64,000 bases of DNA. It comes from Capsulimonadales bacterium (GTDB lineage: Bacteria > Armatimonadota > Armatimonadia > Armatimonadales > Armatimonadaceae). Location of the stretch: NCBI GenBank assembly GCA_033762295.1, contig JANRLW010000071.1, forward strand, positions 1-64,000. The letters run 5' to 3'. The position numbers were made by a program. This document shows positions 17,801 to 23,800 of the stretch, piece by piece (the stretch's first letter is position 1; each line of letters starts with the position of its first letter).

Positions 17801-20800
17801 TCGGTTCGTGGGTCACCGCATGGAAGATATCGCGAAAAGGCGTTCCATCCTCCGCCCGGAATGGGGCGGCCCGAGTGGAGGACGTGCCGATATCCAGGGT
17901 CAGAAGGAGACCATCGGCGGAATCGGAGACGGATGGCGCAGACACGAGTAACCATTCGCGCCGTCCGCCTCCGATTCCTACTTTCCTCAACGGAGGGTCA
18001 GAAATCCGTCCCGCTTCCCTCCGCCTTCGCCTTTTCGTAGACCAGAGCGGCGACCGCGATATCCTCCAGCGCGATCCCGAGAGATTTGAACAGGGTGATC
18101 TGATCGAGGTCCGTTCGGCCTTTTTCCCGCCGCGCGGCAATGGCGGACAGCGGATACGCCTGATCCCAGGAGAACAAACGCTTCTCATAGGCGAAGATTA
18201 ACTCGGCCGCCTCCGCTCGCGCCTGCGCCATATCGTCGACAACGACAATGTCCGCGCGGCCGACCACCTGCTCCTCGATCTCACGGGCGGTCAGACGATT
18301 GGCGCCAACCGCCGCGACAAAATGCCCCTCGGTGAGCCAGTCCGCCATCAGAATCGGGTCCGTCGCCGTGGTCGCGCACAGGACGACCTGGGTGCCGCGC
18401 ACCGCTTCTTCGGCGCTCGTCCGGGGCGTAAATCGAACGTTGGCTCGACGGGTCATCTGCTGGCAGAAGCGTTCCCGACGCACGAAATCCCGGCTGTAGA
18501 CGAATACCTCGCGCAGGTTCGGGCAGGCAAGGAGAATCGCTTCCGCCTGCGCCTGCGCCTGATACCCCGACCCGAGCAATGCCGCAAAGTGGGAATCCTT
18601 CCGCGCCAGATAGCGGGCGGCAACCCCGGTCGCCGCGCCGGTGCGCACCTGACCGAGTTTGTTTCCCTCAATCAGCGCCAGCAGTTCCCCCGATTCCGAC
18701 GAAAAAAGGAGAACATAAAAACGCACCTCCCGACCGAACGAGGTATAGGTTTTGGTGCCCATATACCCTTTTCCGGGAAGCGCGGCCGCCATATGGTGCA
18801 TGACCCCGTGCGGCAGGAAGAAACGTTGACGAGACTGGGTGGCAGTGCCATCTCCCGAACTCAACGCGCTGAAAGCCGATTCCAGAGCGCCGATGGCGTC
18901 CGACATGGTGATCAGCCGTTGTACATCATTTTCCGATATGAATAGTGGCATGCCTTTATTGTGGCAGATTCGCCCCGGACATCCACATCCGCCAGCGTCA
19001 TACAAATTACGGTTAAAAACTATAATTCGTCTGCGTGTAAATCCAGGTGCTGGGGTGCGAATCCCCGCCGTTCACCGAGCGAACGAACCGTCCCGGCAGA
19101 AAGCGGGCGATCCCTCCGCTGACGGTGACCCGATCGGTGGCGCGAACGCTGCCGTATAGATCGAACTCCCGCCCTATGTCCGTGCCTGCCGCGCCCGACG
19201 GGTCGCGTAACGCCTTCCCGGTCCGATTCCGGTTCGGCGCACCGTTATCCGCGTACCAGAAGTCGCGCGGATCGGCGAGACGGAAACGATGCCCTTCCAG
19301 CGTCACCGTCCCACGCGCATTCGGACGGATTCTCCATCGCAGACAGAGATCCGTCATGTTGCGCCAGCCCTGAACGTCCGCGATGCCGTAGAGGAAATGG
19401 TTGTTCGGGAACATCTGGTCGAACGTGCCGTAGCGTCGCGGGTTCGCCGGATCGCCGCCGGTGGCGAATGCGAATTCGCCCCATACCCGCATCGGCAGGC
19501 GACCGCCGATTTCCCTTCCGGCCTCGACGTACCCGGCGGCGGCCCGGATCTCCTTCCCCGCGTTCCGCCCGATCTGCCCCGCCAGTTCCACCGTTCCGGA
19601 CCAGTCGCCGGCATGGCGCTCCGTTCGCATTCCGAACGTCCGAACGGCGACGCCGTTCCCGGAAACCCGATCGGTCTTGCTCAGGATATAGAGTTCCGAC
19701 CGGTGTCGGCTGTCCGGGGAAAGGGTCGCATAGATTCCGGCGAGGTACGGGGCATTTGCCTGGTTCGCCGCCTGCCCGAGGCGTCCGGCGAAGAGATCGA
19801 TCCGGCTCGTCCCTGACCGGAATCGTCCCCATCCGGCGTCGAAGGCACGTCCGCAGTAGGTCCAGCCCGAGGCCGCGATCAGGCGTCCCCCGCCGTATTC
19901 CAGTTCCTGCCGTCCCGCCCGCCAGGCCCATCGATCGCCGAACGCCCCTTCCAGCAACGCCTGATGAAAGTCGATCGTCTCCCGACGGACGTTTCCGGTG
20001 GCCGGCAACGCGCCCGTGATCTGCCGGAAAGAAACCTGTGGCTGGAACAGGAAACCGATCCTGGTCGTGGGGGCAACGCGTTCCGGACGCAGAGAAAGGC
20101 GGAGCCGGGAATAGGTGAAATCCGGGTCGTCACCGGAACCCGAACGATAATCGGCGAAGGTCCGGGATTCGAGCCGTGTCCACCCGTCGACCGCAACGCG
20201 AAACGATACGGGAACGGGTCGGCGGTTCGTCCGGTCCGGCAGCCTCTGAGCGGCGGACGGCAACACCGGAGCGCAAAGACAGAGCGTGAGAAGTCCGTTC
20301 CGGAGGACGGCAAGTTTCGATCCCATACCGAGTAATCCTCATTTTCGATGGTTGTCTTGCCGCGCCGGAAGCCGGAAACCGGGGCGGAACATCGCCCCTT
20401 CCCCCTCTATCCTTTCATCGTTTGTTCCGTCGGGCATCGCCGGTTCGGCGGATTGGCAGGCGGATTGGCAGGGGTCGATTTGCCTGAGCGAATTGCCTTG
20501 ACACCGGGAAACGACCATGGTACACTCCACCCCGGACAACGATTTTGCGCCTTCCCCGTAGACAGCCGGTGCGTTTTCCGAACGCTTAAGGACCGTTGAG
20601 GTCGCCTGCCGAGGTGAGATGGCCCCGATTCGCTTTTCGACAGGACGATTCGTTCCTGCCGTGAGCGTCTGCGTATGGGCCCCCGATCCTCCTAAGGGTC
20701 GGGGGCTTTTCGTTTGCGCCCCGTTCCGGCCGTCAGGTCGTGCGGGGCAAGGGAGTATCCTTATCATGCCGATCGCAAAAAAAGACGCGAGCCGGAAAGC

Positions 20801-23800
20801 CGATGTCGTTTCGGATGTTCAGGAAAACCTTCGCGGTTCCCAGGCGGTGATACTCGCCGAGTATCGCGGCCTGACCGTGGCGCAGACCAGCGACATTCGG
20901 AAAAAATTGAAACCGAGCGGGACCAACTTCGCGGTCGTTAAGAACACTCTGTTCAAGCGCGCCGCGGAAGGTCTGATCGACCCCGATCCCGGTCTTGATG
21001 CGAGCCTCAACGGAACGACCGCCGTCGCCTTCGCGCAGAAGGATGCCGTCGAAACGGCCAAATTGGTTCTGGAGTATATCGCCGCCAACCGTAACACCCC
21101 GTTCAAGGTCAAAGGGGTGGTGGTCGGACGGCGGTTCTTCCCCGGCGACCGCCTGGAAGCTCTGTCCAAAACCCCGCCGCGCGAACAGCTTCTCGCCGAG
21201 GCGCTCGGATATATCCAGGCTCCGCTCTCCGGTTTTGTCGGCGTGCTGAACGGCGTCCTTCGGGATACCGTCACCACGCTTCAGGCTATCGTCAACGATT
21301 TCGTCTACACGCTTCAGGCCATTGTCGACAAGATGCAGGCCGAAGGAATTACAAACGAGGGTAAAACCATGGCACTCACCAAAGAACAACTGATCGAAGG
21401 CATCGAAAATATCACGGTTCTGGAGCTGGTCGAACTGGTCAAGCAGCTTCAGGAGAAGTTCGGCGTTTCCGCGGCGGCCCCGATGCCGATGATGCCGATG
21501 GGCGGCATGCCGATGCCCGGAGCGGGCGCGGCTCCGGCCGGCGGCGCTCCGGCCGCTCCGGTCGAGGAAGAGAAGACGACCTTTGACGTTATCCTGTCCG
21601 CGGCAGGCGACAAGAAGATCGCCGTTATCAAGGTCGTGCGCGAAATCACCGGGCTGGGTCTGAAGGAAGCCAAGGAACTTGTCGATAGCGCGCCCAAGGC
21701 TGTCAAGGAAGGCGTCAACAAGGACGAGGCCGAAAAGTTCAAGGCCATGCTGTCCGGCGAAGGCGCCACCGTCGAACTGAAGTAACCGATCTCCCTTACG
21801 GCCTGTTTCGGCAGGCTGTATTCAAACCGTCGCAAAGCCCGACCCTTCCCGGTCGGGCTTTCGTCATTACGCCTCGTCACGGTAGATTCGAGCGATGTGC
21901 GCACCCGTCGCCAGACGCAACGCCGGAATCGTCGCCTCATCTCCCACCCCGATCTCCGGCAGGTCGGTTACGTCGACCACGGTCAGTTGCATCGAAACCC
22001 GCCCCAGAACGGGCGCGGACTTGCCGCCGAATTGCACCGATAGCGTTCGCCGATACTTCCGGGCCAGCAGTTTGAAGGGGGATTGCCGCCAGATCGGCCC
22101 TTCCGGCGCGAGCGTGAATCCGTCGGCGTACCCGACCGGCAGAATCGCGGCGCGGGTCGGGCGTTTGGTCACCGCCTCTCCGCCATACCCGACGGCGGTT
22201 CCGGTTGGCAACTCCCGCACGGACACCACCCGTGCGATCAGTTCCCAGGTCTTTTGCAGGTTCAAGCTCTTCGGAACGGACGCCGACGGATACTGACCGT
22301 AGAGCAACGTGCCGATCCGCACCATGTCGAAATGCGCCTCCGGAAACCTTAACGCCGCCGCGCTGTTGGCCGCATGCGCCCATCCGAAGGCGATCTTCTC
22401 CGCCTGAAGGTGTGCCAGCGTCTCCTTGAAGACGACCAGTTGCCGACGGCAGGCCGCCGGGTCGCTCTCGCTCGCCGTGGCGAAATGGGTGAAGATACCC
22501 GTCGGCGTCACTCCGTAGATGCCGGCCAGGGCGCGGAAAAATCCGGGGGTCGCCTCCGGCAGCAGGCCGAGACGCCCCATTCCCGTATCGACTTTTACAT
22601 GGACCAGCGCCTGCTTTTCCTGTCGCCGCGCCGCCGCCGCCAGCGCCTGACACAGTTCCAGGCTATCCGCCGCGCAAATCAGATCGTACCGTACCGCCGC
22701 CTCGGAATTCTCCGGCAAAATCGGCGCCATGACCAGAATCGGGGCATCCAAGCCGCCCTGTCGGAGGGTCAGCGCCTCATCGATCCGGGTGACGCCCAGC
22801 ATATCCGCCCCCGCCGCCAGGAACGCCCGCGCCGGTTCGACATACCCATGCCCGAACCCGTTGCCCTTGACCACCGCCAGAATCCGCACCGGAGACGGCA
22901 CCGTGCGGCGCACCTCGGAGAAGTTGTGACGAAGGGAAGGTAACGAAACCTCCACCCGCACGTCGGGAGTGATCGTGATCGTATCCTCGGACTCGGAGGC
23001 AGGCAGGGAGGGAAGCATCGGTTCAGGCTTCCTGAACCTGTTTCGTCGGCACCCGATTCCGGTTTTTCAGCGCGGTTCGGATTCGCGGCAACGCACGGGT
23101 CCAACCCCAGTACCAGACCGGCGAAAGAACCAGATCGTACTCGCCGACATACTCGACAAAACGGGGCCGGAACCCCTCCTTGAAGCGGTTCAAACCTTCC
23201 AGGTGAGCGTCTCCGGTGCCTTTCTTCGGCGAGACGCCCCGAAAATCGTACCACTTGCACCCCTGTTCCTTCGCCTGACGGATCATCTCCCACTGGAGCA
23301 GGTGGGGTGCCATAACGTTTCGATTCCGGTTGGAGGACGCGCCGTACAGGTAACACGCCTTGTCCCCGAAAACGTAGTTAAAAACCCCGGCGATCGGTTC
23401 TCCCTCGAAATAGGCCAGAGAGACACGGGCGAACCCGGCGGGACTCAGGCAGTCCCACATGTCGAGGAAATACTTTTCGCTTCGGACGAGGAACCCGTCC
23501 CGTTCGGTGGTTTCGCGCAGCAGGGCGTAAAAGGCAGAAATTTCCTCGCGCCCCCCATGGCGAACGGTCACGCCCTTCCGGCCCGCAAGCCGAATGTTGT
23601 AGCGCCACTTCTCATGGAACGACGCCAGCAACTCGTCTTCCGTCCGTCCGGCAAGGTCCAGTTGCATGACACACTTCGGTTGTGTCCCGCCGAATCCGGT
23701 CGCGGCGATCGGTCGAAAGCCGACCGCGCGCAGGTTCGCGTCGCTCACCGTGTCTTCGATATCGACCGGGGGATCGATCTTGATCAGGATCGCGCCGTGC

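Follow-up and report, generated by a model that had tools for sequence, protein, structure and literature searches.

Standard teaching has the ribosomal stalk as a non-covalent uL10(bL12)n assembly made from two genes, rplJ and rplL, and in the genome described here these two genes are one. In the window, the 64,000-nucleotide stretch of DNA that was analysed, rplJ and rplL form a single stop-free frame of 339 amino acids (20766..21785, + strand) encoding uL10 followed by bL12. A tblastn search of the 5.16-Mb assembly, which is 94.5% complete, found one rplJ and one rplL, both at this locus, and no second copy of either. The best explanation, which we consider probable, is a recent and real loss of the rplJ stop codon and most of the spacer, yielding one tethered chain, with free bL12 supplied from an internal start.

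The genome-wide survey's note had described the genome's only rplJ and rplL as one 339-residue frame with three Pfam rows, and both statements hold, at the same coordinates: L10 at residues 9-104, L12_N at 205-255 and L12 at 273-339. NCBIfam models for L10 (10-176) and L7/L12 (202-339) also score above their cut-offs. The uL10 part (residues 1-194; 20766..21347, +), delimited by domain models and alignment, has the L10 RNA-binding domain and the C-terminal helix 8 of bacterial uL10, and the bL12 part (residues 202-339; 21369..21785, +) has the dimerisation domain, hinge and C-domain of bacterial bL12 and its own ATG. The separate frames, stop and spacer of a canonical rplJ-rplL operon are absent; a Shine-Dalgarno (SD) site and start for rplL are present, as judged by sequence alone. 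The locus shares with natural fusions a stop-free frame, an internal start, a short linker of common length and the lack of a second copy. Stop read-through or a recoded stop was rejected, the frame having no stop to read, and no slippery heptamer was seen by eye for a programmed -1 frameshift to the TAA at 21362. Fold searches matched only separate uL10 and separate bL12 chains, and structure searches found no solved chain spanning both.

The two parts are joined by a 7-codon linker (21348..21368, +; 38% GC, codon adaptation index (CAI) 0.27), whose spacer-like composition and poor codon adaptation suggest a remnant of the former rplJ-rplL spacer. From the Gly of the conserved QAEG to the ATG this is 21 nt, not the 18 nt given earlier. 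The GAGG site and rplL ATG are indeed retained, at 21357 and 21369. The internal SD-like GAGGGT (21357..21362, +), read as Glu-Gly in the fusion, has a duplex energy of -6.4 kcal/mol with a generic anti-SD rather than the host's own, chosen because the 16S 3'-end motif had three matches in the assembly, none in evident rRNA context. The region around the internal start is predicted to be open, with only 14 of 340 windows less structured, and that around the fusion's own start codon and its SD-like AAGGGAG (20749..20768, +) is predicted to be folded, at -13.1 kcal/mol and with less structure in 237 of 340 windows. Within this ORF the bL12 part has a CAI of 0.73-0.75 and the uL10 part 0.61; better codon adaptation of bL12 is found in ordinary operons too (PMC13001810). 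Initiation at the folded upstream site would yield one uL10-bL12 chain, and far more frequent de novo initiation at the open internal site would yield free bL12; from these signals we infer that both products are made. In E. coli, rplJL coupling operates through de novo initiation, with RplL in five-fold excess (PMC10666635). If rplL is initiated de novo and not by re-initiation, the rplJ stop would be dispensable, which would explain repeated fusions.

The locus appears to be a stand-alone rplJL unit, with rplA on another contig. Upstream lies a sigma-70-type promoter-like site, TTGACA-17-TACACT with an extended -10 (20498..20526, +; 10/12 matches), one being found against 0.3 expected in shuffles. 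It is followed by an L10-leader-like autoregulatory RNA (20538..20720, +), a full-length match to Rfam RF00557 at 30.8 bits (E 0.011), which falls short of the gathering threshold of 44. A terminator scan placed a hairpin with a U-run within this leader (20677..20716, +), a probable attenuator that owes its weight to its position within the Rfam model, since two such sites were found against 2.7 in shuffles. A second hairpin with A/T flanks (21834..21861), noted by eye and not called by the scan, sits between rplL and the convergent alr and is a probable terminator. The attenuator of Bacillus subtilis likewise serves a stand-alone rplJL with a leader RNA and terminator-like hairpin (PMC4538822); here, in contrast, the Rfam score is below gathering and the regulator would be a fused complex.

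The same ORF holds a second change, missed by the survey's note: a 33-nt tandem repeat in helix 8 of uL10 (21264-21329), whose copies share 26 of 33 bases against an ORF background of 10.9. Copy 1 (residues 167-177; 21264..21296, +) is an 11-column insertion in alignment A1, and copy 2 (residues 178-188; 21297..21329, +) resembles the ancestral last bL12-binding segment. No such duplication was found in the 120 closest uL10s (the best 120 of 982 matches) or in any other fused row of A1. Each helix-8 segment of about 10 residues binds one bL12 dimer (PMC3299993), bL12 copies per stalk reach eight (PMC12179292), and other members of this genome's family have two or three segments. Eleven residues make three helical turns on the same face, and AlphaFold places both copies inside one helix (170-192) with the linker as coil, at a pLDDT of only 52-73 at the repeat and junction, a single-chain model saying little on the junction. 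Length and helix fit four segments. In copy 1, however, Thr replaces two aromatic residues, and Thr stands where about nine in ten uL10s have Phe or Leu, so this copy may be a spacer and not a site. We put at about evens the possibility that the repeat adds a fourth bL12-dimer site, allowing up to one tethered and seven free arms.

All 22 relatives examined in the family (f1) are unfused, with spacers of 30-127 nt, consistent with the stop and longer spacer claimed for them earlier; genome G026 was rejected as a second fusion, a run of N covering its junction. The window nests within the family with support 100 in trees, the 109-row tree being a quick search, and this nesting among unfused relatives argues for a recent, separate origin. 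A single origin of fusion within the phylum is rejected by the AU test on uL10 plus bL12 (p=0.003), the same test on uL10 alone not being significant (p=0.075). Acquisition of an already fused operon from family f3 is rejected on the nesting, and on the AU test when bL12 is included. In a uL10-only protein search the best identity was 61% and none of the best 120 of 982 matches was fused; no second genome or protein of this lineage was found.

The caveat raised earlier, of one assembly with no reads over the junction, stands: three public runs gave no junction reads and only two 151-nt pieces that come from this organism or a closely related strain, and an exact junction-flank pattern had 0 matches in metagenome contigs. 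An assembly error would mean that the true rplJ ends at the TAA at 21362-21364, one base having been lost, or at a miscalled stop, with the design real elsewhere. Adding one base in the linker does open this TAA, 4 nt ahead of the ATG, and in six codons of the linker region a single change would create a stop; furthermore, error-like fusions exist in the protein collection, and the locus was chosen for looking fused. Such an error would nevertheless require a spacer of 0-24 nt, against 30-127 nt in the 22 relatives, or a uL10 short of its conserved end. The geometry is that of true fusions, and the diverged repeat cannot arise as an assembly slip. Additionally, one 151-nt piece is identical to 20697-20847, which indicates that the assembly is accurate nearby, the S10/spc genes are intact (13/13), G000 is without a frameshift over about 19 kb more, and the roughly 27 kb of checked genes contain none. 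We consider an error improbable and this instance very probably real.

The proposal that the design recurs in independent clades, with linkers spelled by SD bases, is supported at the DNA level. The fusion is fixed in three other families of the same phylum that had been overlooked (f31, 20/20 genomes; f10, 4/4; f3, 2/2). In the Nitrospira phylum, 25 of 128 matched genomes are fused, exactly the 25 top scorers, and in a Calditrichota-named clade all 7 distinct full-length loci are, with GTG (6) or TTG (1) after GGA GGA. Every fused locus scored (57/57) has an ATG, GTG or TTG at a fixed place before the bL12 helix; an SD-like word is present in 56 of the 57. Within the last six codons ahead of the internal start, glycine is encoded by GGA/GGG in 42/42, GGA in 14/14 and GGA/GGG in 48/50 cases, compared with 41%, 21% and 52%, respectively, elsewhere in the same genes, genomes within one clade not being independent. 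These loci support separate origins of the fusion-plus-internal-start design in several bacterial groups. An earlier count of 103 long proteins (at least 280 aa) among the 120 best matches stands as a count, but about 20 are single-member clusters whose linkers are long, spacer-like or frameshifted and which, judged by eye, are probably sequencing errors, and one long match appears by eye to be a tandem array of L12 C-domains. In database records the fusion is annotated sometimes as L10 and sometimes as L7/L12.

These starts bear on a reading in which the fusion alone is translated, bL12 being cut from the chains or the stalk being built of fusion chains only. The short SD-to-start spacing of the Calditrichota-named clade, about 4 nt, speaks for it. 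The starts are retained, however, GTG and TTG make sense solely as starts, glycine codons before them are spelled as SD, and the bL12 half is more codon-adapted here, a signal that is weak in f31/f10 (0.64 vs 0.61; 11/21 genomes). Such a polyprotein would also waste 5-7 uL10 per ribosome, and one bL12 dimer per ribosome impairs E. coli growth (PMC3299993). We regard this reading as highly improbable.

With both products made, as we favour, the fusion chain would bind 23S rRNA through uL10 and helix 8 would take up free bL12 dimers. The N-domain of the tethered bL12 would pair with one free bL12 and is predicted most likely to dock back on the outermost helix-8 segment. The distance from helix 8 to bL12 is 67-72 residues in measurable fused loci; here it is 79, or 68 without the repeat, and it would be 73-107 if three-segment relatives in the family were read through. 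Across 116 fused proteins examined, it lies at 62-74 in 87 of the 94 measurable. Unfused operons with 15-nt in-frame spacers yield 67-68 too, so the shortness of the fused linkers may reflect how easily they arise by mutation. The fusion could be real yet neutral, the stop lost by drift, the tethered bL12 a loose spare arm or protease-trimmed, and the repeat simply a longer helix. Unfused operons often have an in-frame spacer with no stop, which places a fusion one mutation away; the linker is spacer-like, copy 1 lacks its two aromatic residues, and E. coli-type stalks function untethered. Against neutrality, no reversion was seen among the 20+4 f31/f10 or 25 listed Nitrospira-clade genomes, and the distance is held; the bL12 N-domain is conserved, a weak point as the free form needs the same domain. 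We think neutrality unlikely. It is possible, and we offer this tentatively, that bacteria repeatedly evolved a P0-like stalk with a tethered arm docked in cis under selection, here young and with a fourth segment (one tethered and seven free bL12).

Domains and folds match the canonical uL10(bL12)4-8 stalk of E. coli and Thermotoga maritima (1ZAV/1ZAX), the three-segment helix 8 of the latter aligning up to residue 175, and the separate bL12 start is also shared, along with what is probably a single transcript bearing an L10-leader-like RNA. Unlike that stalk, this one has no stop, one bL12 tied to uL10 and a helix 8 longer by an 11-residue segment. The other natural fusions (Nitrospira, f31/f10, f3, Calditrichota-named) share the single frame, the SD in linker codons, the internal start and the 67-72 distance; here, by contrast, the origin is separate and recent, in a single genome that nests within a family otherwise unfused. 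Archaeal/eukaryotic uL10 (P0) is, by analogy only, also a base with its own factor-binding tail beside free arms, and its C-terminal extension resembles the stalk-arm C-terminus (PMC1635324). The present protein is not a P0: archaeal L10 models score 29-38 bits against cut-offs above 330, and what is attached is a complete bL12, dimerisation domain included, with the arm nested in the same frame. As in the earlier search, no natural uL10-bL12 fusion was found in the literature searched, although a 2013 stalk-stoichiometry survey and COG-paper supplements could mention one; the portions seen of 10.1101/2021.01.31.429008, PMC3353972, PMC13001810, PMC3578206 and PMC3299993 describe none.

It is still debated why stalks differ in bL12 copy number, from four to eight (PMC12179292), and a single family with helices of two, three and apparently four segments provides a natural series for that question. 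Where the genes are fused, a marker-gene pipeline detects just one of the two proteins. The fixation of natural fusions in several phyla indicates that tethering of one stalk arm is possible and that rplL can be translated without a stop upstream of it, with implications for the setting of the 1:4-8 ratio and for a possible origin of the archaeal/eukaryotic P0 tail.

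The frame at 20766-21785 encodes a single protein of 339 amino acids without an intervening stop, in which Pfam places a uL10 domain at residues 9-104, the bL12 dimerisation domain at 205-255 and the bL12 C-domain at 273-339, and on which the NCBIfam models for uL10 and bL12 both score above their cut-offs. The assembly holds no further copy of either gene, which upholds the genome-wide survey's note that the only rplJ and rplL of this genome share one frame. The 18 nt that it counted between the conserved uL10 end, QAEG, and the bL12 ATG at 21369 are in fact 21 nt, a linker of seven codons (38% GC) that contains GAGGGT upstream of the internal ATG. 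The bL12 hinge (21480-21560) is long and rich in Met and Pro, with about 10 residues more than most homologs. The fused rplJ-rplL is a stand-alone unit, with a promoter-like site upstream at 20498-20526, a terminator-like hairpin within its leader and the convergent gene alr behind it; an L10-leader match in the upstream region scores below the gathering score. Elsewhere in the window, short prepilin-like genes are clustered in tandem (28354-29828).

The relatives of this organism retain separate genes. A stop and a spacer of 30-127 nt are present in 28 of 29 relative loci, the remaining one having an N gap at the junction, and 22/22 genomes of the window's family proved unfused at the DNA level, as the survey had reported for 22 relatives; two further family genomes gave two separate matches and no match, respectively. 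On a 109-row uL10 tree built by a quick method, the window is nested within its own unfused family with support 100, and placing the fused label on it takes 17 changes, of which starred branches force 5. By themselves, the uL10 columns do not reject a single origin of the phylum's fusions (p=0.075); once bL12 columns are included, it is rejected (p=0.003). Taken together, the nesting, the unfused relatives and the origin test argue that the fusion in the window is a recent, separate event. In family f15, six unfused operons (L036, L039, L040, L042, L046, L047) have 15-nt spacers that stay in frame, contain no stop and consist almost wholly of Shine-Dalgarno (SD) sequence, a single substitution short of a usual-length fusion.

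As a phenomenon, uL10-bL12 fusion is real. Our search of the phylum covered 401 genomes, 373 with a match; among the 150 matches listed, full-length stop-free rows came from families f31 (20/20), f10 (4/4) and f3 (2/2 with a match) and from the window genome. All 26 fused loci of these three families were read individually, and trees place f31 and f10 in one clade. A search of 151 genomes from the phylum that contains a Nitrospira genome gave 128 matched genomes; 25 of these are fused, and they are exactly the top scorers. Only 3 of 80 loci were fused in a capped cross-phylum sample (80 retained from 598 candidates), all three from Nitrospirota, and the trait is thus rare overall. A profile search yielded, at the protein level, more tidy candidate fusions of about 300-320 aa, mostly one-member clusters. 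Among the long proteins to which the survey appealed, about 20 matches have junk-like linkers and are probably errors. Locus L157 has rplK and rplA in a single frame of 374 aa, but the joint looks frameshifted and the record probably contains a sequencing error. Six proteins without uL10 (P0013, P0133, P0137, P0141, P0148, P0163) carry 4-8 stretches matching the bL12 C-domain, arranged in P0013 as tandem arrays.

In the old fused clades, sequence patterns indicate that the internal bL12 start is maintained by selection. A start codon stands at the clade-fixed place in 57/57 fused loci scored and an SD-like word precedes it in 56/57; the start was sought within a window by script, so the evidence lies in its fixed position rather than presence alone. 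Four additional loci, outside the motif filter and the 57, have Met at the same place. In the Calditrichota-named clade, the start is GTG in 6/7 and TTG in 1/7 distinct loci (leaving aside a duplicate, a truncated locus and an unrelated one), preceded in 7/7 by GGA GGA, and the protein seemingly has no Met there. Glycine codons just before the internal start are GGA/GGG in 42/42, GGA in 14/14 and GGA/GGG in 48/50 cases, against 41%, 21% and 52% for the same classes elsewhere in the genes; since kin are not independent, these counts are patterns, not p-values. C-ending Phe/Tyr/Ile/Asn codons are more frequent in the bL12 half in the Nitrospira (0.64 vs 0.50) and Calditrichota-named (0.66 vs 0.56) clades and hardly differ in f31/f10 (0.64 vs 0.61). 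The window fusion has a CAI of 0.73-0.75 in its bL12 half vs 0.61 in its uL10 half; better codon use in the bL12 half is described as a signature of ordinary operons (PMC13001810), and because this fusion is young, its codon and start signs may simply be inherited.

The window uL10 also carries a tandem 33-nt repeat (21264-21296 and 21297-21329, 26 bases identical) that lengthens the C-terminal helix 8 by 11 residues. The repeat is an insertion relative to 22/22 other fused proteins aligned with it and was not found in the 120 closest uL10s; the relatives' helix corresponds to the three-segment helix of T. maritima. One dimer is reported to bind per segment of about 10 residues (PMC3299993), and eight-copy stalks are described, chiefly from cyanobacteria (PMC12179292). 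AlphaFold, at low confidence, places both copies within one continuous helix. Copy 1 has Thr where Phe or Leu stands in 110-116 of 128 segments, which argues against a functional fourth dimer site. Two genera of the family, g7 and g10 (L009, L010, L012, L025, L099, L100, L227), have a two-segment helix 8, shortened by about 11 residues, and stalk stoichiometry thus seems variable within the family.

An assembly or sequencing error could mimic such a fusion: with one extra base in the linker, uL10 would end at TAA 21362, 4 nt before the ATG. All error scenarios imply a spacer shorter than any relative's. The distance from helix 8 to bL12 is 79 in the window, or 68 without the repeat, and 67-72 in true fusions (62-74 in 87 of 94 measurable fused proteins, 116 examined); translation past the stop in three-segment relatives of the family would yield 73-107, above the window's 68. 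The S10/spc genes are intact (13/13), and about 19 kb of additional genes of the genome showed no frameshift, one split row being discounted because its query was a fused protein from another genome. At L223 of this genome (G000:C34, 8204-11080), the spc cluster ends after rplE, followed by a 958-aa frame without an NCBIfam match, and L22, S3 and L16 have long C-terminal extensions. A freshwater metagenome run contains two 151-nt pieces, at 20697-20847 and 20929-21079, one an exact match and the other carrying 5 differences; they come from the window organism or a closely related strain, present at very low depth. The reads searched included none over the junction, and the sequences searched no second assembly of the lineage. 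We consider the fusion very probably a genuine genomic feature.

The upstream start is predicted to be folded (-13.1 kcal/mol) and the internal start open (-4.4 kcal/mol; looser in only 14/340 windows). For E. coli, a five-fold excess of rplL over rplJ translation is reported, produced by de novo initiation dependent on upstream translation (PMC10666635); if initiation here is similar, the rplJ stop would be unnecessary. We infer a mechanism in which ribosomes from the upstream start would read through to make one tethered uL10-bL12 chain and internal initiation would supply free bL12 arms. The tethered N-domain would have to pair with a free bL12; docking back onto the last helix-8 segment would most simply explain the narrow range of linker lengths, although mutational ease could also account for it, as short spacers fuse most easily. 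The parts of the fusion are canonical and the covalent link is the departure: no solved chain was found with uL10 and bL12 covalently joined, and the literature searched, supplements being outside its scope, yielded no natural uL10-bL12 fusion. The nearest design, by analogy only, is the arm-like tail on the stalk base of archaeal and eukaryotic uL10/P0 (PMC1635324). What is new here is a third and a fourth origin of the fusion in this phylum, DNA evidence of GTG/TTG internal starts in the Calditrichota-named clade, and the helix-8 duplication in the window uL10.
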